From positions 1 through 64,000 of the IMG/VR virus record IMGVR_UViG_3300022885_000003: a DNA stretch of 64,000 bases, one strand, 5' to 3'. Origin of the DNA: a virus. Of the stretch, positions 2,565 through 40,400 are shown in pieces (the stretch's first letter is position 1; every line of letters starts with the position of its first letter). Below the pieces are notes generated by a model. It was not told where the DNA came from. It saw nothing but the letters and a program-made list of their open reading frames with translations, and did no database searches. The position numbers were made by a program, and so were the translations under genes.

Positions 2565-3584
2565 TTATCCTTTCATTAATTTATGGACCATCTCCTGGCC
2601 TGTTTTAATTTGTTCTCTTGTTTGTTCTACTTTTGCAATAGCGTTTGATGTCTTGGCTTTATCAAATTTAGAAGCATTCATTGCTTTATTCATTTTGCTA
2701 TCAAAGATTTTTATAAATGCATTGAGTAAATCCTGGGAAGATGAATAATTCTTGAGATTGAATTTGCCATACATATCATTTAATTCAAAGCTTTTAGAAA
2801 GACCCTTAATCATATGAACGAGATCTGCTATTCTTACATCTGTTTTGTTTATACCTGGATATTGTTGTAATTCATTATCAATTTTGGGTTGATTCGTATA
2901 GCCCATTCTTGCATACATCCATAATAGCATATCAATACCAAAATTTTCAATATTTAAACTTATTTGTGCTAATTCATCAAATTTCCTTGTTTTTGCATAA
3001 GAAGCAGGTTCATTACCAACAATCTTCATTTGTGCGCCTGATGTAGAAATGCTTATATCGAGCGAATCACCAAGTGACGAAAACACTGAACCATGTACTA
3101 GCCCTTTAACTCCTTGCTCAGGAGTGTTTCTCCATCTAGCCCAATCAGCTACTTTTTCAGTTGCCCACATAAAATCAACTTGAACAAAAGTATTTTCTAA
3201 AATTTGAAAAATGATATGACCTGATGCTGGCTTGTCAGTTTGAAAAACCGTATTGGGTGATTTCGCAGCAATAAAGTCATCAGCCAATTTATTGTAATGA
3301 GTTGCGATCTGGCTTTCAGTTTTGCCTTCAATAGCTGGCGCAATAATTTGGAGATCGATGTCACCATATTCTTTACCTTCATCATCTACTTGAAAATAAA
3401 CAGTTGATCCAAGTGGTTCACCCATCTTAACTGCATCTTCATCCTGACCAACGAGCCATTTATTGAAATCATCAATAAACATTTTTACAACATTCAATGT
3501 TTCTCGAACGGTATTAGGTGTAATTTTAGTTCCTTGTGTAACTGTATCAGTCCATCCACCTTCAAATAATTCATATGATCTCAT
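2565..3584 (-). CDS. Leader-tagged (MRSYELFE) Pol-beta-superfamily nucleotidyltransferase-like protein
   Basis: LGST...GDIDL...VQVDFM gives GS, DxD and a third Asp. Confidence 0.65.
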   Translation of the reverse strand: MRSYELFEGGWTDTVTQGTKITPNTVRETLNVVKMFIDDFNKWLVGQDEDAVKMGEPLGSTVYFQVDDEGKEYGDIDLQIIAPAIEGKTESQIATHYNKLADDFIAAKSPNTVFQTDKPASGHIIFQILENTFVQVDFMWATEKVADWARWRNTPEQGVKGLVHGSVFSSLGDSLDISISTSGAQMKIVGNEPASYAKTRKFDELAQISLNIENFGIDMLLWMYARMGYTNQPKIDNELQQYPGINKTDVRIADLVHMIKGLSKSFELNDMYGKFNLKNYSSSQDLLNAFIKIFDSKMNKAMNASKFDKAKTSNAIAKVEQTREQIKTGQEMVHKLMKG

Positions 3585-18904: not shown

Positions 18905-20521
18905 ATGAGAGCATATGAATTAATAGAAGGCGTATATGACCCACATATTTTCAAAGCCATTATTATGGCTGGTCCCCCAGGATCAGGTAAATCAACGGTT
19001 GCAAAGAAATTAACCGGTGGTTCCGGTCTTAAAATGGTTGATTCGGATTCCTTCTTAAAACTAGGCGTTAATGATCACACACAACGAGCTAAACTATCTT
19101 CCACGCAATTAGACAACTATATTGAAGGACGTTTAGGCGTCGTTATTGACGGTACTGGTCACAATGTTAATCGGATCCTAGAAACAAAACGTCTATTAGA
19201 CTTTCACGGTTATGATACAATTTTAGTTTTTGTTGATGTTGATCTTGAAAATGCACTATCAAGAAATACAAGAAGATCTAGAACTGAGAACCCACAATAC
19301 GTTTCCAAAATGTGGAATGAAATGGAAGCTAGGAAAGAGCAGCTACGCTCTGTTTTTGGTGGCAACATGGTAGTCGTTGATAATCGTCCAGGTGTTCAAA
19401 ACGATTGGAATCGAGGTTGGAAAGTTATAAAGAAATGGTTAGACCGAGACGTTAATACACCATATGCTCAAGATTGGAAACGAGAGCAACAGCAAAAAAA
19501 GTCGTTAGGCGAAGATTATAAAAGGTTAAAAAGGAAATCTACAGAAAAGTTTAGAGAATTGTATGAATTGTCATTAATGGATGGTAATGATATAGACATA
19601 GATGGTTTTTATAGGGATGCATATCCGTCTATTTTCTTTACTGAAGACTTTGACGATGAATCATTACACGATGCCATAAGCCCATGGATTATTGATGTTG
19701 ATAAACCAACGTTTGTGGTTGATATTTTCTACATGGGAGCATTAAATCGCCTGCAAATCGACATAGATAATTATAAATCTTCACCCTATAATATGCAACC
19801 AACAATCGAGAGCAAAAACATTGCTCATTTACATTTTGATAATGTTAAAGAATTACGATCATTTATAGTGTTAATGAAAACACAATTTGATGGCGATTAT
19901 AATCTAACGATCGACGATAGACGAAACAAATTAAATGAAGATTTGGATTCATCCCTGAACCCAATTGCTATGAATCAAGCAGATGCTGGTAAAGTTGTTG
20001 AGAAAATTAAAAAAGAATGCGGGCAGTATTTAGGAATGATTGATCCCAAAAAACACCACTTGTTTAGAGGGTTAAAATTACGAAATTATTTCGATGCTAT
20101 GGAAATACCTGGAACCAGGGAAAATAGAAAAGCATTAGATACATCAAATGATGTTAATAACGTCGTTATTAAAGCTATCAACGAAAATGGTTTAGTGGCC
20201 AATCGGAATAATAGTTGGTTCAGTACCGGTGATATAGATAGAGCAGATTTTTACGGGACCGTTTATGTTGCATTTCCAACAGATGGTTTCCACTATACTT
20301 GGTCATCGGATATCGACGATTTGTATAGTTTTTCATTGCAGAATGCCGAAGATGGATTACCAATTAATAAAATATACGAACTAGCTAAAAGAAGTTACCA
20401 AGGTGATGATGGTAGTTTATCCAAAGCAATCGAATTTGGTCATGAAATTATGTTTACTTCTCCTAAAGTTATCCTTGTCGACGAAAAATTTCATTACGAT
20501 TATATCAAGGATCAATTATGA
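18905..20521 (+). CDS. Leader-tagged (MRAYELIE) multidomain protein: zeta-toxin-like P-loop kinase, unknown domain, R-S-E-type ART-like domain
   Basis: GPPGSGKS and VVIDGT; C-terminal LFRG...WFSTG...FYGTVYVAFP...EIMF. Confidence 0.8.
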   Translation: MRAYELIEGVYDPHIFKAIIMAGPPGSGKSTVAKKLTGGSGLKMVDSDSFLKLGVNDHTQRAKLSSTQLDNYIEGRLGVVIDGTGHNVNRILETKRLLDFHGYDTILVFVDVDLENALSRNTRRSRTENPQYVSKMWNEMEARKEQLRSVFGGNMVVVDNRPGVQNDWNRGWKVIKKWLDRDVNTPYAQDWKREQQQKKSLGEDYKRLKRKSTEKFRELYELSLMDGNDIDIDGFYRDAYPSIFFTEDFDDESLHDAISPWIIDVDKPTFVVDIFYMGALNRLQIDIDNYKSSPYNMQPTIESKNIAHLHFDNVKELRSFIVLMKTQFDGDYNLTIDDRRNKLNEDLDSSLNPIAMNQADAGKVVEKIKKECGQYLGMIDPKKHHLFRGLKLRNYFDAMEIPGTRENRKALDTSNDVNNVVIKAINENGLVANRNNSWFSTGDIDRADFYGTVYVAFPTDGFHYTWSSDIDDLYSFSLQNAEDGLPINKIYELAKRSYQGDDGSLSKAIEFGHEIMFTSPKVILVDEKFHYDYIKDQL

Positions 20522-21123
20522 GATTTAATGAAATAATTTCAGAAGACAGTTTCGAATCATCGATAATTATTATCGATGATAATAGTAAAGATGTACAGAA
20601 AGTATCTGATTATATTAGACATAAGTGCCAGCAGTATCTATCTATGATTAATCCAAAAACTGATATCTTATATAGAGGTATTGAAAATCGTAGTCATTAC
20701 CATGCTATCGATATTACCGGTGAACGGAAAAATAGAAGTCCAATAGATTCATCTACTGAATTGCATAACAAAATCGATGATATGTTGTATGAACAAGGAT
20801 TCGTAGCTAGAAGAAGCAATAGTTGGTTTGGAACAGGGAATTTTATGACTGCTGGAGTTTATGGAAAAGTGTATGTAGCATTTCCTACTGATGGGTTTCA
20901 TTATACATGGTCTGATACAGTATCCGATCTTTTTACCTATTATCAAGAACATCGAACCAAAGGTATTGATTGGGTTGTTAATAGCATTAAAGACTCTTAT
21001 GAAAGCGACAATAATTCAATAAAAAATGCAATTCAATCGAAAAACGAAATTATGTTTACTTCACCAAGAGTAATACTGGTCGAGGACACTTTTTATCAAG
21101 ACGAGGTTAAATCTAGGTTATGA
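20518..21123 (+). CDS. Leader-tagged (MRFNEIISE) R-type ART-like protein
   Basis: LYRG...WFGTG...YGKVYVAFP...EIMF. Confidence 0.7.
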   Translation: MRFNEIISEDSFESSIIIIDDNSKDVQKVSDYIRHKCQQYLSMINPKTDILYRGIENRSHYHAIDITGERKNRSPIDSSTELHNKIDDMLYEQGFVARRSNSWFGTGNFMTAGVYGKVYVAFPTDGFHYTWSDTVSDLFTYYQEHRTKGIDWVVNSIKDSYESDNNSIKNAIQSKNEIMFTSPRVILVEDTFYQDEVKSRL

Positions 21124-21758
21124 AAGCAATTGAATTATACGAACATACGCCTTCAGTCTCTTCATTGATTATGCCGATTGTTCATTCGAATATCGATGAA
21201 TCTAGTATTTCTAAAGTTGTAGACGCTATTAATGAAAAATGTAGTCAATTTTTAGGAATGGTAGATCCAGTTAATGATGTTTTGTATAGAGGGTTTGATC
21301 GAAAGTCGACGCATTCTTCGCCGTTGGCATTTTATTTTGATGGTAAGCGAGAGAATAGAAAACCACTCAGCACACCTAATGCGTTCCATCAGAAAGTAAT
21401 TAAAATGATTAATTCCGCTGGCTTGGTTGCAAATCGTGATAACGGATGGTTTGCAACCGGAGATAGGAATGAGGCATATGGATATGGTGAAGTTTATGTA
21501 GTGTTCCCGAAAAATGGGTTCCATTATACATGGTCACGGTATATTGGCGATTTATATGCAGATTATGATGAAGCATCCATGACAGATGAAAGGATGGATG
21601 CATTTATGGAAAAAATAAAAGCTTCCTATGAGGGAGATAACGGGACATTGAAAGAAGCAATTCATTCAGGTAATGAAATTATGTTTACATCAGATACAGT
21701 TATAATGGTTAATCCCGATTTTTACCATAAATATATTGCTGCGAATCTAAATAAATAG
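21120..21758 (+). CDS. Leader-tagged (MKAIELYE) R-type ART-like protein
   Basis: LYRG...WFATG...YGEVYVVFP...EIMF. Confidence 0.7.
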   Translation: MKAIELYEHTPSVSSLIMPIVHSNIDESSISKVVDAINEKCSQFLGMVDPVNDVLYRGFDRKSTHSSPLAFYFDGKRENRKPLSTPNAFHQKVIKMINSAGLVANRDNGWFATGDRNEAYGYGEVYVVFPKNGFHYTWSRYIGDLYADYDEASMTDERMDAFMEKIKASYEGDNGTLKEAIHSGNEIMFTSDTVIMVNPDFYHKYIAANLNK

Positions 21759-21782
21759 TAAAATACAGTTTAGGGGATTATT

Positions 21783-22352
21783 ATGTTTTTGGTAGAGTTA
21801 TTTGAAGATCAACAGAAAAGCGCAGTCTTTTCATTCGGTCGCATGAATCCCCCTACTGTGGGTCACCAAAAACTTATGCAGAGAGTTATGGACCTTGCAT
21901 CTGAAAAAAATGCTGATGTATTTATTGTCCCATCTAAGACGCAAGATAAAAAGAAAAATCCCTTATCATTTGAACAAAAGAAATATTTTATTGAAAAGAT
22001 CTATGGGTTTCCGGTTTACGACAACCCAACTATGAAATCCCCATTTCAAATGGCTGGTTGGCTCGGAGAGCAAGGTTATAAGGACGTAACCTTTGTTGTT
22101 GGTTCTGATCGAGTAGAGGCTTTCAAAGGGATCGAAGAGCATTATGCAAAAGACTTTGGTGGAATATTCAAAGTAGTTTCTGCTGGAGAGCGTGATCCCG
22201 ATGCCGATGGAGTAGAAGGTATGAGTGCTTCGGTAATGCGTGAGTTCGCCAAAGAAGGCAATATGGCAAGCTTTATGAAGGGCCTTCCACCCGAAACTAA
22301 AATTGGTATTGCTAAAGAATTGATGATAGCAGTAAGGGATGGTTTGAAATGA
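21783..22352 (+). CDS. Leader-tagged (MFLVELFE) HxGH nucleotidylyltransferase (cytidyltransferase/NadD-like)
   Basis: FGRMNPPTVGH, NPL, VVGSDR, MSASVMR. Confidence 0.85.
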   Translation: MFLVELFEDQQKSAVFSFGRMNPPTVGHQKLMQRVMDLASEKNADVFIVPSKTQDKKKNPLSFEQKKYFIEKIYGFPVYDNPTMKSPFQMAGWLGEQGYKDVTFVVGSDRVEAFKGIEEHYAKDFGGIFKVVSAGERDPDADGVEGMSASVMREFAKEGNMASFMKGLPPETKIGIAKELMIAVRDGLK

Positions 22353-23212
22353 GATATATAGAATTATCTGAATCAATAACAGCATATCATGGTTCAAGCA
22401 ATGAACACCAAGGATTTGATACAAAGCATACAGGTGATAATAGTCATACATTTGGTAGTTACAATACTGATCGACATGGCATATTCTTTAGTTTAAATCC
22501 GAAATTTGCTGCCATGTATGGAGACGTTATTCAATATGAACTGAATATTAATAACACTACCAATCTTGATAAGAGTCTTGATATAGTTGCTGCCTTTGCA
22601 GATCAAACAACTGACCGAGGAATAAGGATGGATGCTCAAAATGTTTTATATAAACATTGGAGCGTTTGGCAATTATTCGAAGATGATCTGGGTAAAGAAT
22701 TTGTAACATTTTTAAAAGATCAAGGGTACGATTCAGCCACATTTACCGAATATAACGAAAATGATGATGGGAAGGAAATTGACGGAAAGACAATTGTTGT
22801 TTTCAATCCAAGCAAAGTTATAAAGCATGGACAGCTTGAATTGGATTTATATGAGAACACTGATGAATTTAGTTCGTTAACCATTGAAGAGTTTATGTTG
22901 TATATTGAAAATAAATATGATGTAAAACAGTTCTTTGTTTCTAATTATAAAACAAACATTATCAAACTTGATAATATTATTGTTGGTGATAAGAAGCGGG
23001 GCACTGGTACAGAAATTATGAATGATCTTATTACTTATGCCGATGATAATCATAAAATGATTATATTAACCCCAGCAGTAGCAGATGATCGACATGGTAC
23101 AACTTCTAGATCTAGGCTTGTAAAATTTTACAAGAGATTTGGATTTTATGAGAATAAGGGTCGGAAGAAAGATTTTAGTCTTCCTTCCGGAATGATAAGG
23201 GATCCACAATGA
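22349..23212 (+). CDS. Leader-tagged (MRYIELSE) His-type ART domain plus GNAT acetyltransferase
   Basis: AYHGS...GIFFS...AAMYG...GYDS...IVVF; then KKRGTGT.IM...LVKFYKRFGF. Confidence 0.8.
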   Translation: MRYIELSESITAYHGSSNEHQGFDTKHTGDNSHTFGSYNTDRHGIFFSLNPKFAAMYGDVIQYELNINNTTNLDKSLDIVAAFADQTTDRGIRMDAQNVLYKHWSVWQLFEDDLGKEFVTFLKDQGYDSATFTEYNENDDGKEIDGKTIVVFNPSKVIKHGQLELDLYENTDEFSSLTIEEFMLYIENKYDVKQFFVSNYKTNIIKLDNIIVGDKKRGTGTEIMNDLITYADDNHKMIILTPAVADDRHGTTSRSRLVKFYKRFGFYENKGRKKDFSLPSGMIRDPQ

Positions 23213-23883
23213 GATATCAAGAATTATATGATTGGGAACAGTTATCGGCGTCTAATTTCGTTATGCCAAAAATGTCTGGATCTTATATCGACAAAGCATC
23301 ATGTGGGAGGGGGACATACCATATATATGTGGATATTAATATACCCCAAAAATATTATTGGGCTATAGATCCCAATACCAATATACCTATATGCTTTATT
23401 GGTTTATTACAATTTGGTAAATATTATATGATAAAGAATGCATTTTCTAGTATTCAAGGAAAAGGTCTAGCTACATCTTTGATTGACTATGTTATTGATG
23501 CAGAAAACACAATGTTTTTCTCTGATACACAAATGAGTTTAGCTGGAGAAGCGTTAACACGAAAGTTGGAACAGCGTTCATTAACTAGAATAGTAAACCT
23601 GAATACTCTGGAAATATTTGATAAAACTGATGTTAATCAAAAACAATCTAACGATGGTGAAATGGTTACGCATCCAAAAAACGATACGCGCACGACACCG
23701 CAAGACTTTGGTAATATTCAACATAATGAACAACGTTGGGTATTTGTATTTGAAAATATAATAACAGAAACTAAAAAATATTCAAGCAACCAACCCAAAT
23801 TATTAAAATTTGACGTTCCTGAAAAAGGATATTCTAAAGATAGTTTATTGATACCACTTGTTAGATATACAGAGGGCCCATAA
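23209..23883 (+). CDS. Leader-tagged (MRYQELYD) GNAT-like protein
   Basis: IQGKGLATSL acetyl-CoA loop; FSDTQMS.AG. Confidence 0.6.
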   Translation: MRYQELYDWEQLSASNFVMPKMSGSYIDKASCGRGTYHIYVDINIPQKYYWAIDPNTNIPICFIGLLQFGKYYMIKNAFSSIQGKGLATSLIDYVIDAENTMFFSDTQMSLAGEALTRKLEQRSLTRIVNLNTLEIFDKTDVNQKQSNDGEMVTHPKNDTRTTPQDFGNIQHNEQRWVFVFENIITETKKYSSNQPKLLKFDVPEKGYSKDSLLIPLVRYTEGP

Positions 23884-24500
23884 TGAGATACGAAGAATTA
23901 ACTGAAGGTAAAAATACTCCTTGCATTGTTGTTGATGTGCAACCAGAGTATACTGGATTAAATGACGGTAACGAACTTCCGTGGATCGACGAGATGATGG
24001 CGTTTCTTAATAAACAAACAGGCCCCATATTAATGTTTGTTAATGCTGAAGACCAAATGATGTCAGGTGATACTATTGACGATGTTAACGTATACTGGGA
24101 AGATTCCGGATTTGATCCTAGCAATTGGGATAGAGTCCAAGTTGTCGATAAGGGATATGGTTATTTTAGAGCATGGATGGATTCAGGTGTTCCTGAATCG
24201 GGTATCATTAAAACAATACGAGCAATGTATCAACAGAAAATTACAGACTCTAGAGAATTATTTAATGGGGAAGATGACGAAAACTATATTGAAAACATGA
24301 ACCAATTATTAGGGAATGATGATTGGGTTTCATTATATGATGATGGATTAAGTGTTGAATGGACATCAGTTGGACAATTAAAACGATTCTCTGGTGCTTA
24401 TATTATGGGTGGTGGTAGAGATGAATGCCTTCGAGAAGTTGAGTTATTGATGAATGCATTTAACATTAAATACAAACGTATAGAGGACTTTGTTTACTAA
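23883..24500 (+). CDS. Leader-tagged (MRYEELTE) isochorismatase/nicotinamidase-like cysteine hydrolase
   Basis: IVVDVQ (Asp), VDKG (Lys), GGGRDECL (Cys) triad pattern. Confidence 0.65.
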   Translation: MRYEELTEGKNTPCIVVDVQPEYTGLNDGNELPWIDEMMAFLNKQTGPILMFVNAEDQMMSGDTIDDVNVYWEDSGFDPSNWDRVQVVDKGYGYFRAWMDSGVPESGIIKTIRAMYQQKITDSRELFNGEDDENYIENMNQLLGNDDWVSLYDDGLSVEWTSVGQLKRFSGAYIMGGGRDECLREVELLMNAFNIKYKRIEDFVY

Positions 24501-24868
24501 TGAGAGCAATAGAGTTATATGAAAATAATATAGATATCGATTATTATATGGAGGAAGGATGTGGTATCTGGGCGGTAGCTCATGCTTTAAAAAACAATGG
24601 AAAGGTTTTAACTCTATACAACCCCGAAGGAGAAGCCTGGGATAATCAAACACATGAAATTACGCATGTGGTATCAATTGTTGATGGTAAAGCACATGAT
24701 GTCCTGGGAAGTTATAATCATATATCGGAAATTGATAAAAGATTCGGTAACTTGCAAATGGGAGATTCTTATAAACCCAAAGAATTTTTAAAGAAATTTA
24801 TGGGCGATAGTGATGACAAACCATTATATGGTGATATGAATGATGTTAAAGAAGTAATAGGTGTATAA
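24500..24868 (+). CDS. Leader-tagged (MRAIELYE) Cys-His-Asp (papain/transglutaminase-like) protein
   Basis: GCGIWAVA...THVV...HDVLG. Confidence 0.55.
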   Translation: MRAIELYENNIDIDYYMEEGCGIWAVAHALKNNGKVLTLYNPEGEAWDNQTHEITHVVSIVDGKAHDVLGSYNHISEIDKRFGNLQMGDSYKPKEFLKKFMGDSDDKPLYGDMNDVKEVIGV

Positions 24869-24871
24869 AAA

Positions 24872-25423
24872 ATGAGATACGAAGAATTAACTGAAAGCCG
24901 ATAGAAAACAGTTTACCACGGTGATAATTTTGGTACTACTTCATTGGAGCCTTCGTTAATGAATAACGGAAATAACCAAGAAGGTATAGGAATTTATTTT
25001 ACTGACAAATTAGAAACAACAGATACTTATGGTTTAAATGTAATTTCAGCTATAATAAATCAAGATAGATTTCTTAATAGCCGAGATACAGTAGATATAA
25101 TTGGAGTTCAACAAATAACCAAATTATTAAAAGCATTATGGCCATCTGATGAAGAAGCAATGTTTTATTGGATATCTGATTATATACCGTTGTCTGTACC
25201 AGAAGAAGTTGAAGAACATCATTTAGAAGAATTCGCTGGAAAGGTAGGATCTAGCGAAATTAGAAATTTTCAAATCGAATTAGCAAGTAATTTTGGTGTA
25301 GAAAATATGGTTAAAGCATGGAATGATATCTTAAATATTGATGGTACTTATTATCCATACATAGAAGGTGAAATATGGTACGCAATTATAAACCCCGAAA
25401 TTCAAGTAACGGTGATAAAATGA
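24872..25423 (+). pseudogene. Leader-tagged (MRYEELTE) His-type ART-like gene interrupted by in-frame TAG at 24902-24904
   Basis: MRYEELTESR*KTVYHGDNF continues in frame into ORF 24944 (EGIGIYFT...TYG). Confidence 0.8.
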
Positions 25424-25815
25424 GAGCAATAGAATTAACAGAAAATAAATTTTATCATGGAACATCGTCTTGTCTCTTAGAAACTATTAAAGAGGATGGG
25501 TTTTCTTCTCCATCATATTTTGTTAAGGATTTTGATGTAGCGTCTGAGTATGCAGCAATGGGTGGAGAATGGGATTTGCAGGATCGAGAAGAAAAATATG
25601 AAGAAAAATATGGCACCCCACCTAGAGAAATATTTGATGTTTGGGAAATGTATGAGAAATTGTATCCCGTTGGATGCTATCCCATCGTAATTGAAGTTCT
25701 AATACCAAATAATGTAATGCAATTTGCTGATGCTGGTGGCCATGGTTCAGAAGCAATATCATTAAATAATTGCAGTGGTGTTAAAATAAATTCAATACAT
25801 AAGGTTAAATGGTGA
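25420..25815 (+). CDS. Leader-tagged (MRAIELTE) His-type ART-like protein
   Basis: FYHGTS...I..DG...YF.....ASEYA...IVIEV. Confidence 0.7.
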   Translation: MRAIELTENKFYHGTSSCLLETIKEDGFSSPSYFVKDFDVASEYAAMGGEWDLQDREEKYEEKYGTPPREIFDVWEMYEKLYPVGCYPIVIEVLIPNNVMQFADAGGHGSEAISLNNCSGVKINSIHKVKW

Positions 25816-25821
25816 TTCAAA

Positions 25822-26478
25822 ATGAGAGCAATAGATTTATATGAAAACAATCACAAGGAAGAAATAGTCAGGGCATGGAGTCTCATACAACGAGACTGTC
25901 AACCTTTCCTTCTGGAATCTAATAATAAACCATTATATCGTGGCATAAATGATCTAAATACGGTTGAGTCTAGAGTTTCTTTTACCAAACTAACTGTTCA
26001 TCAAGAACGTATACCACGAGACACTAATCCATTTGAACATGAATATGTTATTAAAGCTATGAAAGATGCTGGGTTTAATGCACATCGCGGCAATTCAATA
26101 TTTTGTCAAGCTAGTACAGTTGGACTATATGACTATGGTGAAGTTTATGTCATATTTCCAATTGGTGATTTTAATGTTACATGGTCTAATGTGATAGTAG
26201 ACTGGACCGAAGATGGAAATATATACTAATTTGTTACGAATCACAAAGAGCATCCTGGATTTGTGTCAAAAGAATCCATCGTTGATATGCCAGGATTTAC
26301 AAGATGGATCGATGCAAATTACATTGATGGTCATTTGGCGGAAGCAATAGAAGCCAAACATTACGAGATAATGATCAATTGTAAGGAATATTATGCAGTT
26401 CTATATAAATCTCATAATAGCCAACAAATGTGGGATTATCAAGATATGAAGGAGGTGGTCAATCATGAGAGCAATTGA
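25822..26478 (+). pseudogene. Leader-tagged (MRAIDLYE) R-type ART-like gene interrupted by in-frame TAA at 26227-26229
   Basis: ORFs 25822 and 26263 are in the same frame and together align with paralog 29763 (EIMINCKEYYAVL...HESN). Confidence 0.8.
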
Positions 26479-27241
26479 ACTATACGAATACCATGAAACT
26501 TCACCTGTAATTATTTCGCCCGATATAATTAAGAAAATCAAATCCGAGTGTTCAATTGCTTTATCCAAGGATCCAATATATCGAGGGTTAAATCAGTCAA
26601 ACGATATATTATATGGAAATCCAATAAAACCGAGATCGTCTGCAAACACATATAACTATTACACAACGATATTAGATGAGTTACCATCGTGGCAAAAATT
26701 CCCAAAGAGATCATTGTCATGGATTTGCTCTACTTCAGAAAATACAGCATCGGGATATGGGACCGTCTATCGTGTTTTACCGGTCAATAACCCTTTGATA
26801 TCTATTGCATCAAGTGATGATTTATGGTTTTCTTTCTCTGAGGGATTACATCGAACCCTGTCTGATATTCATGTGTATGACCTATTCGATTTTAGTAGAT
26901 TATTACATGATATATTCGCAATTGGTAGACGTAACGGTGTTTCAGTTAATGTTAAATCTTTAGGTGATATGAATAATACCATTGAACTGATTATCAAGCA
27001 GAATGAAATCGAATCAATTACCCGTTATGAGAGATATCAAGAGTTTTTCACTTATGTACAAAAAGCCGGTAGCTTCATAAACTTAGTAAGCACACTTTTC
27101 GACCCAAAAATTAACCATATAGAGTTGGTCGACTTGAATAAATTTATCGCTGCACCATCTCGAGAGGTATGGTTTACTGGTCCAGCATATTTCATTCAAA
27201 ATACCCATTGGGGGAAGATGTTTAAGAATAAATATCAGTAA
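26465..27241 (+). CDS. Leader-tagged (MRAIELYE) R-STS-E ART-like protein
   Basis: IYRG...WICSTS...YG.VYRVLP...REVWF. Confidence 0.75.
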   Translation: MRAIELYEYHETSPVIISPDIIKKIKSECSIALSKDPIYRGLNQSNDILYGNPIKPRSSANTYNYYTTILDELPSWQKFPKRSLSWICSTSENTASGYGTVYRVLPVNNPLISIASSDDLWFSFSEGLHRTLSDIHVYDLFDFSRLLHDIFAIGRRNGVSVNVKSLGDMNNTIELIIKQNEIESITRYERYQEFFTYVQKAGSFINLVSTLFDPKINHIELVDLNKFIAAPSREVWFTGPAYFIQNTHWGKMFKNKYQ

Positions 27242-27255
27242 TATTGGAGTTTAAA

Positions 27256-28023
27256 ATGCGCGCCATCGAATTATATGAATATCATGAAACAAAAGAAGTT
27301 ACGCCTTCTCCTGAAATTATTCAGAAAATTAAGAAAGATTGCGCATTTGCATTGAAAGGCAGTAGACCAATATATCGTGGTATGGAAACACACTTAGATT
27401 TTATGTATAGTAATACACCAGAAATTCCCAGAGAGTCTGCTAATACACATAACTATTATACTATACTTATGGATGAATTACCAAGCTGGTCATCATTTCC
27501 AAAACGTTCTCTATCATGGATTTGCTCAACTAGTCGATTTACGGCTTCTGATTATGGTAATCTTTTCCGAGTATTACCTGTCGGAAATCCTGATATTGTT
27601 ATTGCAGATAAAGAAGATTTATGGTTTAGTTTTATTAAAGGGTTATCGTTAATAAGCGTAGAACTCGAAGATATGGACGAGTTCAATCAAACTATTTCGA
27701 TAATTATCAATAAAACCGATAATCAACCCCCAAAGACATTAAAGTCTCTTGCTTCGATAATTGATCAAGCTGCTCATAATCAACAAAATGGTTCAAAAAT
27801 CGTCGATGAATGGAGTAGCGCGGAAGTAGCCGCGCACGAATTACTCAATGAAGTTAATCAAAAGGGTGGGTTTGTTTCACTTATGAACAATGTATTAGAT
27901 CCAGAACTAAATGATTTCTATATTACCAAATTAAATAATCTTTATGATAAAACTAGTGAAGTATGGTTCAGTGGTCCGGCTTATTTCTTATCACTTGATA
28001 TTTGGAATAATTATTTTGAATAA
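27256..28023 (+). CDS. Leader-tagged (MRAIELYE) R-STS-E ART-like protein, paralog of 26465
   Basis: IYRG...WICSTS...YG.LFRVLP...SEVWF; has its own TAAATA and GGAG. Confidence 0.75.
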   Translation: MRAIELYEYHETKEVTPSPEIIQKIKKDCAFALKGSRPIYRGMETHLDFMYSNTPEIPRESANTHNYYTILMDELPSWSSFPKRSLSWICSTSRFTASDYGNLFRVLPVGNPDIVIADKEDLWFSFIKGLSLISVELEDMDEFNQTISIIINKTDNQPPKTLKSLASIIDQAAHNQQNGSKIVDEWSSAEVAAHELLNEVNQKGGFVSLMNNVLDPELNDFYITKLNNLYDKTSEVWFSGPAYFLSLDIWNNYFE

Positions 28024-28057
28024 CTTCATTAATTATAATGTAATAAATAGTATTACT

Positions 28058-28471
28058 ATGAAACTAGATGATATTGATAAAGATAAAATTATAAAATTTC
28101 CTGGGAGAACATCCAGGGACGTAAAGGAAGAACGCGCAAAATTTAATTTAATCATTAAGGAATTGGTCACATTACAACTTGAAAAGGAAAAGCAACCTGA
28201 ACGTTCACAAGCGATAATACGTGGACTCAAGACGGAATACTCAGGATTAATGGCTCGGTTTGTTTCACAAATGTTATATCTCTTGGAAATAAAAGGTGAT
28301 GAAGAACAGTTCCTAGATATGGTTATGAGTGCTAAATGGGACGATATACGTAAAGAGTTTTTAGAACATAAAATTGATATATTTAAGAAGATATATGGAA
28401 TTCTTCGTAACCATACAACTGCAAGAGCAGCGGAATTAGGGATAAGGATTGTAAGAAATGAGAGCATATGA
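28058..28471 (+). CDS. Helical hypothetical protein with weak or no leader (MKLDDID)
   Basis: Start placed just after TAAATA at 28044-28049. Confidence 0.6.
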   Translation: MKLDDIDKDKIIKFPGRTSRDVKEERAKFNLIIKELVTLQLEKEKQPERSQAIIRGLKTEYSGLMARFVSQMLYLLEIKGDEEQFLDMVMSAKWDDIRKEFLEHKIDIFKKIYGILRNHTTARAAELGIRIVRNESI

Positions 28472-29168
28472 ATTATTTGAAAAGGTTGTACAAACAGATC
28501 GATATAATTATCGTGGTTATAAAATTGTTTTCCAATTGGAGCCTGATTCCCAAGGAAAATATATTGGTCAGATTTTCGGAGACAATGCCCCAAAAGAGCA
28601 ATTTGAAAATACAGACTTAGAAGATCTTAAACGGGATATGGAAAATACTGTTAATCAATTAGAAGTTGATGCCAAAAGAAACATGTTAGTTCGTCGAGAT
28701 GTAGTAGATTCAAATGCCATACGACGGGTTGCATTAAATTATAATACACAATTTACAAGACAAATACTCGATAATGAAATACCAACAGCAACTAGATTAA
28801 TGTTTGTAAATGGTCAAGCATACTTAGATGTGATGACAAGAGAAGCGTTTGAAGTGTTTGGTGAAGAACTCAAATCAGTTGGATTTACTAAAATTTCCGA
28901 TCGGCAATGGTCAAAGAGTGAAGGTGCCACAAAAATATTCGGGGTTTCTAATGTTAATCCAAAGTTAATAGATCAAATGAATTTAGAATTCCACGGCGTT
29001 TATGAATTAAAAGTAGGACAATCACCTGATCCCGAAATGTTTACACGTTATGAATTGGATCAATTGGGTTACAGTGATAAGGATATGTCATATCCGGTTC
29101 CTGCCGTAACAATTGCATTCTGGTACAAAGACGGAAAGTATTCAGAGGAATCAAATGCGAGCAATTGA
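28458..29168 (+). CDS. Leader-tagged (MRAYELFE) protein of unknown function
   Basis: Leader present; 236 aa. Confidence 0.75.
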   Translation: MRAYELFEKVVQTDRYNYRGYKIVFQLEPDSQGKYIGQIFGDNAPKEQFENTDLEDLKRDMENTVNQLEVDAKRNMLVRRDVVDSNAIRRVALNYNTQFTRQILDNEIPTATRLMFVNGQAYLDVMTREAFEVFGEELKSVGFTKISDRQWSKSEGATKIFGVSNVNPKLIDQMNLEFHGVYELKVGQSPDPEMFTRYELDQLGYSDKDMSYPVPAVTIAFWYKDGKYSEESNASN

Positions 29169-29766
29169 ATTATATGAAACTCGACTCGAAATAGGATTTG
29201 AGCTACTACAGAAATTCAAAAGCATGGATGAGATTGGTGAGTTCGCTGGAAAAATTCAAGAAGATTGTTCCGATTTTCTATCCATACGAGGAACCGGCTG
29301 GCTTTATCGAGCAACCGACGATATCGGTAATCAAATTGGAATTGCATCACCTACTCCGGATCGCCCACCTCTTCATACTCCAAGAGAGGAGCATAATAAT
29401 GCGGTTCATTGGATGAAAAAGAATGGGGCTATTGCAAGGCGAGATAATTCTTTTTTCTGCTATAATAATCCATATGACACTGAAAATTTCGACCATGTAT
29501 ATGGCAATCGAATCTATTCAGTTGTGCCTATAAATGGATTTCATTATACTTGGTTTGATGGGGTTAATGATTTTACAATGCAGGGTCCCAAGGCAGGAAG
29601 ATACGATACTATGGATGAATTCGCAAAAGATCACCCAATACATGTCGATGAGGGATTGTCTCATGCGTTGAGTAATCCTGATAATTCTCCCGAAATTTTA
29701 ATACAAGGTCGTTGTTATTTTATACAAGAAAGCATTTTTGAAGATATGTTTAAGGATAAATTATGA
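29155..29766 (+). CDS. Leader-tagged (MRAIELYE) divergent R-type ART-like protein
   Basis: LYRA...ARRDNSFFC...YG..IY.VVP..FHYTW...EILI. Confidence 0.65.
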   Translation: MRAIELYETRLEIGFELLQKFKSMDEIGEFAGKIQEDCSDFLSIRGTGWLYRATDDIGNQIGIASPTPDRPPLHTPREEHNNAVHWMKKNGAIARRDNSFFCYNNPYDTENFDHVYGNRIYSVVPINGFHYTWFDGVNDFTMQGPKAGRYDTMDEFAKDHPIHVDEGLSHALSNPDNSPEILIQGRCYFIQESIFEDMFKDKL

Positions 29767-30446
29767 GAGCAATTGAATTATTTGAATCAGACGATATATC
29801 AATGAAAGAAGCTTGGAAGTTAATTCAACGCGATTGCCAACCATATCTCAGTCTTAAAGCCGATGATTTATATTTGTATCGAGGTATCGCGGAAATACAA
29901 TTTAATCCAAGAACATCTTTTCGTAAACTTCCAGTTAGACAAGATCGCCGACCCCTTGATTCAAACATAGATGACCATAATATTACTAATGCGGCAATGC
30001 AGGCGGCTGGATTTAAAGCATATAGAGGAAATTCGATTTTTTGCAGAACAACCCATGAAGGACTTGGTAACTATGGTTTACTTCATATGATTTTCCCAAT
30101 CGGAAACTTTAATATATCTTGGTCCCCTTCAGTTGGTGATTGGAACAACAATGGGCCAAATATTATCAATGATAATATTGAAGTCGATGAAGATACAACC
30201 ACAAACAAAAAAAACTCAATAACATTAAGTGATGGTGAAAAGGTAGTTTATGACAATTTAGTTGATTGGTTCGAAGATCATTATAAGGATAATGATTTAC
30301 AATACGCAATGGAAGACAGCCCCAATTCAGAAATCATGATTAATTGTAAAGAATACTATGCGGTTTTATTTGATAGTAGTAAATTGAAAAATAATATATG
30401 GGACTCATTTGAGTTAACGGAGATAATAGAACATGAAAGCAATTGA
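29763..30446 (+). CDS. Leader-tagged (MRAIELFE) R-type ART-like protein
   Basis: LYRG...RGNSIFC...YG....IFP...EIMI. Confidence 0.7.
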   Translation: MRAIELFESDDISMKEAWKLIQRDCQPYLSLKADDLYLYRGIAEIQFNPRTSFRKLPVRQDRRPLDSNIDDHNITNAAMQAAGFKAYRGNSIFCRTTHEGLGNYGLLHMIFPIGNFNISWSPSVGDWNNNGPNIINDNIEVDEDTTTNKKNSITLSDGEKVVYDNLVDWFEDHYKDNDLQYAMEDSPNSEIMINCKEYYAVLFDSSKLKNNIWDSFELTEIIEHESN

Positions 30447-31024: not shown

Positions 31025-31540
31025 ATGAAAATAATTAACCTATTTGCGGGTCCGGGTTCCGGCAAATCGACAACTGCGGCTGGTCTATTTCATAAAATGA
31101 AAATTGAAGGCTGTAATGTAGAAATGGTGACAGAGTACGCCAAAGATATGACCTGGGAGAATCGACATAACGTATTGTCAGATCAGTTATATCTTCTCGC
31201 AAAACAGAATCGCCGCATTCATCGTTTAGAAGGAAAGGTTGATTATGTCGTTACTGACTCACCAATAATTATGGGTGTAGTTTATACAGATCCAAAATAT
31301 TATCCATCGTTCTTTAAAATGATCGGTGAAATATTTCATTCATACAATAATTGTAACTTTTTTCTACATCGACCCGAGACTTATTCAGAAGTGGGGAGAA
31401 ATCAAACGTTAACTGATGCAAAAATACTTGATACAAAAATCATTAAACTACTAGAAGAATACGAAATCAATTATAAAGAAATTAATGTAACTGATAAAAA
31501 TCTATTCGATAAAATTATGAAATGGTCAATTGATAATTAA
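31025..31540 (+). CDS. NadR-like P-loop kinase/ATPase
   Basis: GPGSGKST, EYAK, VVTDSP, GRNQ. Confidence 0.8.
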   Translation: MKIINLFAGPGSGKSTTAAGLFHKMKIEGCNVEMVTEYAKDMTWENRHNVLSDQLYLLAKQNRRIHRLEGKVDYVVTDSPIIMGVVYTDPKYYPSFFKMIGEIFHSYNNCNFFLHRPETYSEVGRNQTLTDAKILDTKIIKLLEEYEINYKEINVTDKNLFDKIMKWSIDN

Positions 31541-35396: not shown

Positions 35397-35776
35397 TAGC
35401 AGGATTTACAGGAACACAAAGCACAATGTCAACGGATCAATTTGATCGATTAGTTAAATTATGCAAAGATTATAAAATAACCGAATTGCATCACGGTGAC
35501 TGTGTTGGAGCCGATGCAGTTGCACACGATATTGCGGAATCACTTAACATTCGAACCGTAATTCACCCACCAATTAAACCATTCAAACGGGCGTTTAAGA
35601 AGGGTGATATGATATTGCCGATGAAAGATTATTTGGTCAGAAACCGAGACATTGTTAATGCCTCGGAAATTCTGTTTGCTTGCCCCAAAGGACCAGAAGA
35701 ATTACGTTCAGGAACTTGGTCAACGGTTAGATATGCTCGGCGAGTTAAGAAACCAATTGAAATTGTTATGCCTTAA
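35393..35776 (+). CDS. SLOG/DprA-like Rossmann-fold protein
   Basis: GFTG, HHGDCVGAD, RNRDIV, SGTWSTVRYA. Confidence 0.8.
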   Translation: MIAGFTGTQSTMSTDQFDRLVKLCKDYKITELHHGDCVGADAVAHDIAESLNIRTVIHPPIKPFKRAFKKGDMILPMKDYLVRNRDIVNASEILFACPKGPEELRSGTWSTVRYARRVKKPIEIVMP

Positions 35777-38700
35777 CTATTGTCTTTCTGTTCAGACTTC
35801 AAGCAACCATATGTTTCAACCGTTTCACCAGTATTTGCATTTTTAGATTCAAGAATAACATCAAATCCCCATAACGTATGAACATGTTTTAACATTTCAT
35901 CGGTATTATTATTCAATGGTATTTCATTTCTCATATAATGTGTTAGATACAATGTACGGTCTCCAAGTATATCGAAATCCGTAATCTGAATATCTGGAAG
36001 AATGCGATTAAGCTGATATTGCTTAGATAGAATTGATCGAACACGTTTGAAACCATAATCATCGTGAATGTTACTTACATCATATACTGGTCTTTTATTA
36101 TTATCATGAAGACTAAACAAATGCATCTTACGAATCAAGTGCGGTGATAGATATTGCAAAATAAATGATTCATCTTTGAAGTTTTCCATTGCATAATTTA
36201 ATGTAGGGAGCCAGGGCTGACCAACAATACTTGGAAACCATTCTTCATCTTCTTTAGTTGGCTTTTCACACATTCTTTTGATATCATGGAAGATATTGAA
36301 TCCAAGATAATACGGATTAAAACCACCTTGATAATATGGTGAATCAAAATCTGGCTGGAATACAACACCAGAGTGACTCTTTAGAAATTCAAGCATATTT
36401 CCATCCGAAATTCTATCCTGTTCCCATAAATCATACATCAAATGGTGATGCCAAAAACTTGCCCACCCTTCGTTCATAACTTTTGTATTATGGGATATTA
36501 ATCCATCAGTCCAAAATAAATGATTTTCTGGAACAGTTACATCATATACCCATTCTATATTTCCCTTTTCTATACTTACTATTTCATCATAATAATTATT
36601 AGATGCATTGCTTATTAATTCTAATGCTTCTTTTATTTTCGGATGACAATCTTTAATTTTTTCTAAACGTTTAATTAAGCAATATGATATTTGCTCAATC
36701 GCTACGTTATTTAGAGATAGATTAGGGAAGGCATCTAAACAATCTAATCCGGTATCTTTTAATAACAAATTATTTTTTACCTTATATGCGTAATTACTCT
36801 TTTGGTAGTTATCAGTAGCTGTATGGGCAATCTGTAATTTTTTAATAGCAGCCTTGGCTTCGATTAATACTTCTTTTCCGTTAGGAATAACTCTATTACC
36901 TTTTAGTAGTTTGATTTTAGACCGCTTAGTTCCTATTTCATCATAGAACTTGTTAGTAAAATCTGAATATATTTTTAAAGAATAATCAACGGCTTTAATA
37001 TCTTCACAATCCGGAATATTTAAAGCAAATGCAATAGACTCGAATGATTCTCTTTCTTTTATGTTGACTTTTGGTATTATACCGAAACCAGTCAGTATTA
37101 CTGATAACGTTTGTAAGTCATCATAATCGTCAGAATAACCGGCGATGGCAATGTTACCACGTTCATACGATTTTTTTGAAATTCTGGTATCAAAGAAACC
37201 ACTTAGATATTCTTTCATGTATTCTTTTTTCAAACTAAGAACAAACTTTGGTAATTCATGTCTTCTAGTTATAGATATATTTTTAAACCATATGTCTTTT
37301 AACATCATAGAAGCAAATTCGACTTTATACGACGAATAATATTCTTTAGATTTAACAACAATGCCAAACACTTTGTTGAGTAAATGAACAACGTCATCTG
37401 CTATTTCTTTTGTATCTGTAACGAATTTAAATAAAGATGCCGTTCGTCTATAGTCTGTAATAGTAGCACCCGATAAATAACCAAATAACCTGGCCGAATC
37501 ATTATTAAAATGTGTAGGCATTTTCGTTATTTTGTTTTTTGACATAGTTAATTTATATTCGTCTGAAATACAACTACCATATTCTTTTTTGTAAAAATCT
37601 ATATCGATACTATGCCGTTGTACAATATGACTTGCAATCGAGGAAGATTGTAAACCACATATCTTACATTCGATAACATCTAAATTATATTTAGGATATT
37701 TTATTTCTACTTCTTTATGCCCGAATATATCATAATCTAATTTATAAACAAGATATTCACCAGGACTCATATCCTCTAAACGCGTCATACATACTAAACC
37801 ATTATTAGATAATACTTGTAATGGGTGTTCAGGAGTGGCTGTAAAGGTTCTACCAGATTTAGTAGTTATTTTAAATGTGTCAGCTTGTTTTTTATATGTA
37901 TGAGAAATAGCTGTCGTTTTATTGCCTTCGGTTAATAAATTAAACCCAGGATGTTCTGCGATTCCTTCTGTTACGATTAGGTCTTGTAATCTAATTAAAC
38001 CATTTTCATTACTAACAAAATGATTACCAGTAAGACACTGCATTTGTGGATAAAAATACTGAGCCATTTTGCGGACGATGCGGACAATTTCACGCTGCCA
38101 CTGTTCAAGTACAGGACTATTTTTCTCAATGAAATATAAAAGGTTTTCTTGTGGTTCGCTCAAGAATTTTTTCTTTCTGGCGTCTTGATCTTCCTTCTTC
38201 GTTGGTGGAAGCGTTTTCCATAAGTCATCAACTTGGCTTTGTCGATAAGTTTCTCTATCTTGTTGCCTTAATAATTCTTTAGACTTGGAAAGCTTACGTG
38301 GCTTTTTATAGCGGTCGACACCATGATTCATAAGTGCGTGACATGAATCAAGTGTCTCTTCGACCTTTTCCTGGCCATAACGTTCTTCACATTGTTTGAT
38401 ATAACGGCGGGCGAAAACTACATAATCAATGATTGCATCAGCATCAGTCCATTCTTTAAACAGGAAATTGTTCTTAAAGAAATTATTGTGGCCATAGCCG
38501 GCATGAGCAATAACCAATGTTTGCATAGTCATGCTGTTCTCTTCCATAAGATAATTGATGGTTGGGTTAGAGTTAATAACAATCTCATATGCCAATCCCA
38601 TTGCGCCTCTTTTATAATTTTGTTCATCATGGAGGAACCTTTTTCCATAACTCCAGTGGTGATACATATTTGGCATACCAACGGAAGTATATGCATCCAA

Positions 38701-38844
38701 CATTTCAGCTGAGCCGATAATTTCGTACTGATTAGGATAACAGTCCATGCCATATGTTCCTATAGCGATATCGGCAATCGCTTTGTCAACTTCAGCAATC
38801 TTTTCAAATGTCCAATCATTGTTTGTATATAATAACTTACTCAT
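35773..38844 (-). CDS. ycgB: SpoVR/YcgB family protein containing an intein
   Basis: GMP.MY.HWS.GK, GLAYEIVINS.P, HAGYGHN.FFKNN, YFYPQ.Q|TKVMNEGWASFWH; exteins total 506 aa. Confidence 0.93.
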   Translation of the reverse strand: MSKLLYTNNDWTFEKIAEVDKAIADIAIGTYGMDCYPNQYEIIGSAEMLDAYTSVGMPNMYHHWSYGKRFLHDEQNYKRGAMGLAYEIVINSNPTINYLMEENSMTMQTLVIAHAGYGHNNFFKNNFLFKEWTDADAIIDYVVFARRYIKQCEERYGQEKVEETLDSCHALMNHGVDRYKKPRKLSKSKELLRQQDRETYRQSQVDDLWKTLPPTKKEDQDARKKKFLSEPQENLLYFIEKNSPVLEQWQREIVRIVRKMAQYFYPQMQCLTGNHFVSNENGLIRLQDLIVTEGIAEHPGFNLLTEGNKTTAISHTYKKQADTFKITTKSGRTFTATPEHPLQVLSNNGLVCMTRLEDMSPGEYLVYKLDYDIFGHKEVEIKYPKYNLDVIECKICGLQSSSIASHIVQRHSIDIDFYKKEYGSCISDEYKLTMSKNKITKMPTHFNNDSARLFGYLSGATITDYRRTASLFKFVTDTKEIADDVVHLLNKVFGIVVKSKEYYSSYKVEFASMMLKDIWFKNISITRRHELPKFVLSLKKEYMKEYLSGFFDTRISKKSYERGNIAIAGYSDDYDDLQTLSVILTGFGIIPKVNIKERESFESIAFALNIPDCEDIKAVDYSLKIYSDFTNKFYDEIGTKRSKIKLLKGNRVIPNGKEVLIEAKAAIKKLQIAHTATDNYQKSNYAYKVKNNLLLKDTGLDCLDAFPNLSLNNVAIEQISYCLIKRLEKIKDCHPKIKEALELISNASNNYYDEIVSIEKGNIEWVYDVTVPENHLFWTDGLISHNTKVMNEGWASFWHHHLMYDLWEQDRISDGNMLEFLKSHSGVVFQPDFDSPYYQGGFNPYYLGFNIFHDIKRMCEKPTKEDEEWFPSIVGQPWLPTLNYAMENFKDESFILQYLSPHLIRKMHLFSLHDNNKRPVYDVSNIHDDYGFKRVRSILSKQYQLNRILPDIQITDFDILGDRTLYLTHYMRNEIPLNNNTDEMLKHVHTLWGFDVILESKNANTGETVETYGCLKSEQKDNS
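36487..38037 (-). mobile_element. Intein (517 aa) with degenerate LAGLIDADG-type endonuclease and C2H2 finger
   Basis: Starts CLTGN; block B TATPEHP; ends VYDVTVPENHLFWTDGLISHN with +1 Thr; internal LFGYLSG and YLSGFFD; CKIC...H....H. Confidence 0.92.
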
Positions 38845-40120
38845 CTAGTCCACCTTTCTTAAAGAGGTCACGGAAAATTGGGTATATTTCGTTTGGTGTA
38901 TCAACCTTCCTCATATGGAATCGTTCTTCCTGAATTTTCTCATAATTCTTCCAAAGTTCGGAGTCTACACCACCATTATCATAAAAGTGGGACCAATGCC
39001 CCTGGTCATGCCCTACCTCAACATATGCATAATATTGAACCTTGGGGAAAATATCATTAACCAGCATATCAATTACCTTAGTGGTATCTCCACCATAATT
39101 ATCACCATCAGATGCTTGTGCAAAATAAATGTTATAATCAGAAGTTGGATAACGATCAGTTATAATCTTATTCGCCAATTCAATAGCAGATGATACAACT
39201 GTTCCACCAGATTCCTTTGAGTAAAAGAATTCTTGTTCATCTACTTCAGCAGCAACATGATGATGTCGTATAAAGATAATATCAACTTTTTCATACTTTC
39301 TTTCAAGAAACAAATAAAGCAACATAAAGAATCTTTTTGCTAAGTCCTTTTCATATTCACCCATTGAACCCGAGACGTCCATCATACATATCATTACTGC
39401 TTGGGTAGAAGGTTCTGGCCTTTTTTCAAAATTGTTATAACGTAAATCGACATCATCAATAAAGGGTACCAGGTCCCTTTCTTTAAGTGCTAATGCAATT
39501 TCGTCATCGAATATGTCTCTTTCTTTTTTAGTTTTAGCTTTCTTTTTGTCTTCTTCAATTTTATCAATATCTTTATCGTATATAGATTGCATTGCAATTT
39601 GTCGACCAAGAGCCGCTTGCATTGATCTGACAATATTTAAATTTGCTGGATTACCAACAGCCGAATACCCTGATCGTTTTAATTTAAAGACGTCTTGATC
39701 TTTAAGTTGGGTTTTAATAAGGTCAGGGAGTTCTAGGTCTTCAAAGAAGAAATCCAAAAATTCTTCTCTAGTTAAATTAAAGGAGAATTCGTCTTCTCCA
39801 TCACCGTCAGCTGAGCCTTCGCTCCCGCCCCCACCAGAACCACCTTCTGGTTTCTTAATGGAGTCACCAACAAGTTTATCTTTGTTGCCTGGAAGAATGA
39901 AATCTCTGTTACCACCCTTGCCGTTACCAAAGGTCGGTTCCCCTATTCCTTTCTGTGGAATAGTAATTTTCTCTCCGCTGTCGATATCTTTGATATTCCG
40001 TTTCTGAACTATTTCATCTACTTGTTTTTTAATAGTTTTTCTAGCACGCTTTATAAAGCGGCGGCGGTTATCAAGGCTCTTCTTATTACTACTTTTTCTC
40101 CGGTCTACAATAGTGCTCAC
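38837..40120 (-). CDS. yeaH: YeaH/YhbH family vWA protein
   Basis: GTG start at 40120 after GGAGG; IVDRR, NRRRF, PFIDD.DLRY, MDVSGSM, ESGGT, QASDGDN. Confidence 0.93.
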   Translation of the reverse strand: MSTIVDRRKSSNKKSLDNRRRFIKRARKTIKKQVDEIVQKRNIKDIDSGEKITIPQKGIGEPTFGNGKGGNRDFILPGNKDKLVGDSIKKPEGGSGGGGSEGSADGDGEDEFSFNLTREEFLDFFFEDLELPDLIKTQLKDQDVFKLKRSGYSAVGNPANLNIVRSMQAALGRQIAMQSIYDKDIDKIEEDKKKAKTKKERDIFDDEIALALKERDLVPFIDDVDLRYNNFEKRPEPSTQAVMICMMDVSGSMGEYEKDLAKRFFMLLYLFLERKYEKVDIIFIRHHHVAAEVDEQEFFYSKESGGTVVSSAIELANKIITDRYPTSDYNIYFAQASDGDNYGGDTTKVIDMLVNDIFPKVQYYAYVEVGHDQGHWSHFYDNGGVDSELWKNYEKIQEERFHMRKVDTPNEIYPIFRDLFKKGGLDE

Positions 40121-40284
40121 TGGAAGCCTCCTTACCATTGGGGGAATAGTTATTACAATACTATTTATTATTTTGGAAAATAGTTCATTCGATTTCATGC
40201 AATTTTATTTTAATAACGCTATGTTTTTTAATAATAAATAAAAGATAACATTAAAATTATGTTATATAATACCCATTAACTCCA

Positions 40285-40316
40285 CCCCGGGCTTACTTTT
40301 GCCCGGGGTCTTTTTT
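40285..40316 (+). terminator. Intrinsic terminator on the + strand with no obvious upstream gene
   Basis: CCCCGGGC-TTACTTTT-GCCCGGGG-TCTTTTTT. Confidence 0.7.
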
Positions 40317-40339
40317 GACTTAAATTCTAATCAAATTAC

Positions 40340-40372
40340 AAAAAAGCCCCAGGATTATGTCCCAGGGCTTTT
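40340..40372 (-). terminator. Terminator downstream of prkA
   Basis: AAAAAAGCCC...GGGCTTTT. Confidence 0.7.
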
Positions 40373-40400
40373 AAGTTGTAATGTACGTATTTTATTACTT

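Follow-up and report, generated by a model that had tools for sequence, protein, structure and literature searches.

A tandem family of leader-tagged phage proteins with a predicted ADP-ribosyltransferase core

The DNA analysed here (the window) is the first 64 kb (64,000 nucleotides) of the 114,738 bp IMG/VR virus record IMGVR_UViG_3300022885_000003, which has a G+C content of 37% and a CheckV completeness of 31%. One window protein is also encoded on a 407,795-bp contig, and the source is therefore regarded as a jumbo phage. Between positions 18905 and 30963, on the plus strand, 17 consecutive genes from unrelated families all open with the motif M-(R/K)-x-x-E-L-x-E, called the leader below. 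This array holds a kinase fusion, the copies of a protein family with a predicted ADP-ribosyltransferase (ART) fold that is the subject of this work, ART-PolyVal, GNAT-like and NMNAT-like genes, and several unknowns. The ATGA at the gene starts often doubles as the TGA stop of the gene upstream. Scans of the array for T4-late promoters and for sigma-70 promoters and terminators gave nothing above chance. Leader-bearing genes were also present elsewhere in the record, at positions 2565-4927 and 86262-95111, both on the minus strand.

An initial annotation of the window had described an eight-member family, and an eight-way alignment showed all of the motifs that it listed, namely a helix with I..xC..xL, (L/I)-Y-R-G, R-x-P, R-x-N-S-x-F, Y-G-x-V-Y-x-x-P and, late in the protein, E-(I/V)-(M/W)-(F/I), as well as the central triplets STG, GTG, ATG, CQA, STS, STS, CYN and CRT (Table 1). 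The PHROG models phrog_11975 and phrog_12810 matched all eight stretches with E-values from 1e-15 to 1e-41; as these models were built without this genome, the homology is real. The PHROGs that match the family are labelled "unknown". All eight members proved to be true paralogues, but the count was too low, as a profile search of the record found two extra copies beyond the window (86262-86933 and within 90124-91398, both on the minus strand), making ten. Gene 25822, previously taken for a gene of 135 aa, is a full-length copy split by an in-frame stop. Its conserved C-terminal motifs carry on in frame past the TAA, the 71-aa open reading frame (ORF) at 26263 corresponds to its C-terminus, and the tree pairs it with 29763 (support 99/98).

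Table 1. Family members and associated features in the window
Feature	Position	Strand	Evidence
Family domain at the C-terminus (about aa 344-538) of fusion protein 18905-20521 (538 aa)	19934..20521	+	profile match aa 344-538; phrog_11975 1e-31
AAA_33/Zeta-toxin-type P-loop kinase domain in the N-terminal part of 18905, which also carries the leader	aa 24-152	+	Pfam AAA_33 7e-12, Zeta_toxin 4e-07
Leader of 20518, 8 codons (M-R/K-x-x-E-L/I-x-E), as an example	20518..20541	+	
Family member, 201 aa, subfamily A	20518..21123	+	AlphaFold2 model 1; ART-fold matches
Family member, 212 aa, subfamily A	21120..21758	+	eight-way alignment, PHROG HMM, record profile search
Family member, 29763 type, cut by in-frame TAA at 26227-26229	25822..26478	+	sequence; profile match 1-193 spanning one TAA
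Family member, 258 aa, subfamily B (C-S-T-S, E-V-W-F)	26465..27241	+	AlphaFold2 model 2; phrog_12810 5e-41
Family member, 255 aa, subfamily B	27256..28023	+	alignment, PHROG HMM, tree
Family member, 203 aa, divergent subfamily A (Y-R-A, C-Y-N, E-I-L-I)	29155..29766	+	alignment, PHROG HMM
Family member, 227 aa, subfamily A	29763..30446	+	alignment, PHROG HMM, tree

The tree was organised into two deep subfamilies, A and B (bootstrap 100/99), and not into the three or four subclades that had been proposed. The paralogues were at most 45% identical and the terminal branches had a median length of 0.9 changes per site, which indicates that the copies are old. Both subfamilies were found in this phage and in the Agrobacterium jumbo phage Atu_ph07, so that the split between A and B predates these phage lineages. 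Atu_ph07 showed 13 matches, mostly in a tandem array (gp054-gp063), and two related IMG/VR contigs showed 25 matches each, corresponding to about 18-20 genes, as some genes matched in two pieces.

A family profile made from the seven intact window copies was scored against 1.84 billion cluster representatives and retrieved 8,853 clusters (50% identity) at E <= 1e-3, and 6,043 at E <= 1e-10. The nearest ESM Atlas clusters were 96-100% viral. The family is among the larger unannotated phage families: the window copies had no Pfam, NCBIfam or PDB sequence match, no Pfam match recurred among 92 diverse members, a profile search of the PDB sequences gave a single match, by chance, and a literature search found no paper describing the family. 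The sole recurrent fusion partner was the AAA_33/Zeta-toxin-type P-loop kinase, located on either side of the family domain (18905 in the window, the metagenomic proteins P0009, P0024, P0066, P0105 and P0123, and Atu_ph07 gp53). Some metagenomic proteins carried two to five family domains per chain, with three to five in P0001 (2,645 aa), P0008, P0010, P0013-P0015 and P0020; these could be true polyproteins or the result of gene-calling read-through of arrays. A word-indexed search with 26465 returned just five close relatives. Another, for longer fused forms, was negative, which by the tool's own rating is weak evidence.

The conservation pattern was examined using the residue numbering of 20518. 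Six residues (C37, R53, R73, R99, P123 and E177) were invariant in the 92 diverse members, and eight others (G54, P75, N101, F104, Y115, G116, D137 and A171) were nearly so. Among 29 copies from three phages, R99, G116 and P123 were found in all, and E177 was missing solely from the truncated copy at L003:3606. The motif [Y/F/W]-R-G was seen in 92 of the 92 alignment members and in 25 of the 29 copies. His took the place of R53 in two copies, one in each of two phages (W-H-G at 90124-91398 and L-H-G-T at L003:3606-4127), and two further copies read Y-S-G-R-R. The exchange of Arg for His at R53 is the one dividing His-type from Arg-type ART clades. The copy within 90124-91398, a divergent protein of 424 aa, also has Thr in place of R73, is devoid of Cys37 and reads E-M-E-I-M-L at the Glu strand; judged by its residues, this copy represents the His type within a family of Arg type.

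The spacing of the core was fixed, with 42-49 residues between R53 and R99 and 23-29 between R99 and P123. The stretch from P123 to E177 varied from 51 to 148 residues among paralogues. It was all-helical in the structural model of 26465, in which a helical insert of about 128 aa precedes the Glu strand. ARTs carry target-recognition loops just before the catalytic strand, and the variable insert probably sets the target specificity. The copies may have diversified to different targets, as suggested by the initial annotation.

One member of each subfamily was modelled with AlphaFold2: 20518 of subfamily A from the 92-sequence alignment (model 1, pLDDT 90.9, pTM 0.86) and 26465 of subfamily B (model 2, pLDDT 90.7, pTM 0.85). 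When 48,161 representative chains were searched exhaustively with VIA-align, ART-fold proteins dominated the match lists of both models, and the family is predicted to possess the split beta-sheet ART core that had been expected. For model 2, the scores were 6.1 for Arr, 5.6 for diphtheria toxin (DT), 5.3 for BC2332, 4.8 for PARP16, 4.7 for cholix, 4.6 for exotoxin A and for 6KYF (AcrIF11), 4.5 for AvrPphF ORF2 and 4.3 for TreX. Ranks 1-14 were nearly all ART-fold chains, and Tpt1, Scabin, pertussis S1 and TccC3 ranked lower. In model 1, the first core strand contains R53 (Y-R-G), and E177 directly precedes the penultimate strand (E-I-M-I). By the offsets of the alignment ranges, an estimate and not a residue-level alignment, R53 falls 1-3 residues from Arr H19 and DT H21, and E177 (E234 in model 2) about 2 residues from the catalytic Glu of PARP1, PARP2 and tankyrase. 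The structural neighbours were mainly on the His-Tyr-Glu side (Arr, DT, PARP), together with BC2332, and the cholera-toxin-like assignment made initially was not upheld. BC2332 is placed in the SCOP ADP-ribosylation superfamily, d.166.1.6 (PMC3000352). The ESM Atlas neighbours by structure were DUF2441, which belongs to the Pfam ART clan (PMC7955679), DUF3841, ART-PolyVal and DRAT.

All copies open with M-(R/K)-x-x-E-(L/I)-x-E, for example M-R-A-I-E-L-Y-E. The leader codons vary synonymously (ATG CGC GCC ATC GAA in 27256 versus ATG AGA GCA ATT GAA), which indicates that the constraint acts on the peptide. Among 144 non-self metagenomic homologues, 98 start with M-[RK]-x-x-[EQD]-[LIVM], and 125 have [LIVM]-x-E within their first 12 residues. 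Residues 1-11 were disordered in model 1. Internal proteins of phage T4 are led into the prohead by a capsid-targeting sequence about 10 residues long, which the gp21 protease removes by cutting after [L/I]-x-E. Alt, the packaged ART of T4, has the N-terminus M-E-L-I-T-E-L-F-D-E, with the cut at ITE-6.

Experimental data on the family are confined to the mass spectrometry (MS) of Atu_ph07 virions, which identified gp53-gp65 and gp67 (3-31 unique peptides, coverage 12-67%; Attai et al. 2018, PMC6102473, Table S5). The detected proteins include every family homologue (gp54-gp63, with masses matching the ORFs) and the kinase fusion gp53. A single gene of the block, gp066, was undetected in virions (PMC6102473). 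The Atu_ph07 homologues are labelled "hypothetical protein" in RefSeq. A gp21-type protease and a gp23-type capsid protein are both present in that phage.

We propose that the family consists of head-packaged, injected, NAD+-using ART-fold enzymes in which a variable insert chooses the target, and we give this proposal an even chance of being correct. Homology, family size, predicted fold class, conservation and the leader were computed here and the presence in virions comes from the Atu_ph07 homologues; from these we infer leader cleavage, injection, NAD+ use and the kind of target. The N-terminal tag M-R-x-x-E-L-x-E, whose last residues form an L-x-E protease site of the T4 type, would direct the protein into the prohead and would then be removed by cleavage. 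The mature protein would ride in the head and enter the host with the DNA, like T4 Alt. In the host cell, the YRG Arg on beta-1 would most likely bind NAD+, and ADP-ribose would be transferred to host targets with the help of the invariant Glu that opens the penultimate strand. The catalytic core would be held rigid, and the helical insert ahead of the Glu strand would probably decide the target of each copy.

Several results weigh against this proposal. A Foldseek search of the PDB, one of the checks that the initial annotation had recommended, returned noise only for both models, and against viral models it retrieved only uncharacterised family members. None of the 92 members matched a Pfam ART-clan model, and PF18760 (ART-PolyVal) was matched only by neighbouring His-type genes. 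When the family profile was compared by hhalign, the probability was 0.1% with T4 Alt and 1.6% with the His-type ART-PolyVal set of the window. The parallel with T4 Alt drawn initially gains from the leader and from the virion proteomics of homologues, and is not backed by a sequence or profile link. The R-S-E layout announced at the same time stood in part. Conservation covers the Arg of YRG and the late Glu, which fall at ART positions by the range offsets, but not the classical S-T-S: positions 105-107 read [C/V/T/A]-[T/S]-[G/S/T] across the family, with a perfect STS only in 26465 and 27256, and the conserved Ser is S102 of the R-x-N-S motif (27 of the 29 copies), not that of STS. Of the [Q/E]-x-E motif, the second Glu is invariant; the residue two positions earlier is G, K or N, and E in only 5 of the 92 members. 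The resulting layout, an Arg and a Glu on an ART core plus two more invariant Arg and an invariant Cys, departs from the textbook R-S-E set. The Macro HMM matched nothing in the fragment. The PF03420 model of the gp21-type protease matched nothing in this record, which is 31% complete, nor in contigs G001 and G002 (60% and 74%). Finally, the Atu_ph07 virions were purified with PEG only, and the list of detected proteins includes a few obviously non-structural ones (PMC6102473).

The conserved Arg residues could also be read in another way. Three invariant Arg suggest a phosphate-rich substrate, AAA_33/Zeta-type kinases recur as fusion partners on one side of the domain or the other, DarT and Tpt1 appear among the structural matches, and a leader-tagged ligase-like protein with K-x-D-G (L003:7271-8383) and the NMNAT-like gene at 21783 lie in the same arrays. 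All of this would suit ART-fold enzymes which, with the fused P-loop kinase, act on nucleic acids or nucleotides, either by base ADP-ribosylation of the DarT/CmdT kind or by Tpt1-like phosphate chemistry. We consider this explanation unlikely, as DarT and Tpt1 scored no better than the protein-modifying ARTs, and ten to twenty divergent paralogues per phage suit many targets better than one repair reaction. The Arg-His-Arg-Arg tetrad of Tpt1 is, moreover, carried for the most part by a separate N-lobe, which the family does not have.

The abundance of the Atu_ph07 homologues in virions would also be expected of non-catalytic internal head or ejection proteins, in which an ART-derived scaffold serves in packing, DNA organisation or host-factor binding, like the inner-body paralogues of phiKZ-like phages. 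Paralogous processed head proteins are known in giant phages (PMC5694885), and the absence of STS and the loss of R53 in some copies point in the same direction. This explanation appears improbable, because the invariance of R99 and E177 and the near-invariance of R53, R73, N101 and S102 over thousands of divergent sequences form an active-site signature and not that of a packing protein. The least probable explanation is that the fold is not ART and that the low-Z matches reflect a generic alpha/beta arrangement with an unrelated function, since the two subfamilies were modelled separately and both lists were headed almost solely by ART-fold chains among the 48,161, the Atlas search by structure concurred, and the Arg-to-His exchange falls at the expected site.

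If the family members are active enzymes, they would form a very large unnamed branch of the ART superfamily, comprising some 8,900 almost exclusively viral clusters (50% identity), and giant phages would preload their capsid with sets of ten or more. It is possible, though less likely than not, that the 10-25 paralogues of a jumbo phage make up a virion-delivered arsenal in which each insert disables a different host defence or housekeeping factor within the first seconds of infection. Such an arsenal would be the principle of Alt and AcrIF11 scaled up, and one of the largest unannotated phage enzyme families. With active enzymes, the single case of T4 Alt would widen into a general early-takeover or anti-defence strategy, the family would provide a list of candidate inhibitors of bacterial immunity, and a block of "hypothetical virion proteins" would be accounted for in cultured jumbo phages such as Atu_ph07.

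Other genes of the array and of its surroundings were also characterised. A leader-tagged NMNAT-like nucleotidyltransferase gene (CTP_transf_like, 21783-22352, plus strand) is part of the array, and just past the array follows an AAA_28 (NadR-type kinase) gene (31025-31540, plus strand). An NMNAT-like gene with the leader is likewise located inside the array of contig L003 (8384-9397). The NMNAT-like and NadR-type genes may serve to supply NAD+ in connection with the ART-fold set. Besides the ligase-like protein of L003, another with K-x-D-G is encoded in an array at L001:5027-6049 (Atu_ph07 gp066).

The product of 22349-23212 (plus strand) combines an ART-PolyVal domain (PF18760, 33.3 bits against a cut-off of 31.2) with a GNAT-like C-terminal domain, which recurs as the N-terminus of Atu_ph07 gp063, there fused to an ART-fold family member. 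Genes 24872, 25420 and 30433 add two or three more leader-tagged His-type ART-like genes to the array. In the first of them (24872-25423, plus strand), which has Y-H-G and matches PF18760 weakly, codon 11 is an in-frame TAG (24902-24904), past which the frame runs on into an ORF called from the TTG at 24944. Two genes of the array are nonsense-interrupted, 24872 by TAG and 25822 by TAA. No suppressor tRNA able to read these two stops was found in the record, and stop-codon recoding was rejected since TGA, TAA and TAG all terminate normal genes there.

Outside the array, an intact trio of PrkA/YeaG-like, YeaH-like and SpoVR-like genes occupies positions 35773-42335 on the minus strand, with strong matches to phrog_22605, phrog_19072 and phrog_35217 and 68% identity to the YeaG annotated in Enterobacter phage LAU1. 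The gene at 6813-8000 (plus strand) is class II aminoacyl-tRNA-synthetase-like (phrog_18916, 3e-146), and its product, by our own reading, resembles the ThrRS core. Together with an EF-Ts-like fragment encoded at positions 1-200, it represents translation genes in the phage.

Among the known systems that resemble the family, Arr, the rifampin ART, differs in being a His-Tyr-Asp enzyme with a small-molecule substrate, and BC2332/DUF2441 (PDB 2aua) in that the DUF2441 HMM (PF10386) matches nothing in the genome. AcrIF11, a phage ART which inactivates the type I-F CRISPR complex, is a single gene, is not known as packaged and has no sequence similarity to the family. ART-PolyVal (PF18760) belongs to the ART clan, and true ART-PolyVal genes with the same leader are found in the array (22349) and at 91459-92790. 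The ART and GNAT domains of phage polyvalent proteins have been proposed to be delivered with the phage DNA (PMC7824862). ART-PolyVal is however of His type (Y-H-G) and without profile similarity to the family, whose domains are separate tagged genes and not parts of one giant protein.

The principle of a packaged, processed and injected ART is already known from T4 Alt, and what is new is the family itself, which was missed by every ART model tried and has its own residue constellation. Both T4 Alt (with ModA/ModB) and the family have a phage ART fold (predicted for the family), a short N-terminal propeptide (putative in the family) ending in [I/L]-x-E, virion carriage (for the family, by MS of the Atu_ph07 homologues), and an aromatic-Arg motif with a late Glu followed by hydrophobic residues. 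Alt has no detectable sequence or profile similarity to the family and is a protein of 682 aa, whereas the family domain has 200-260 aa, lacks a conserved S-T-S or E-x-E and displays two extra invariant Arg and a Cys. The family is also present as 10-25 separately tagged paralogues per genome, compared to one to three in the T4 system.

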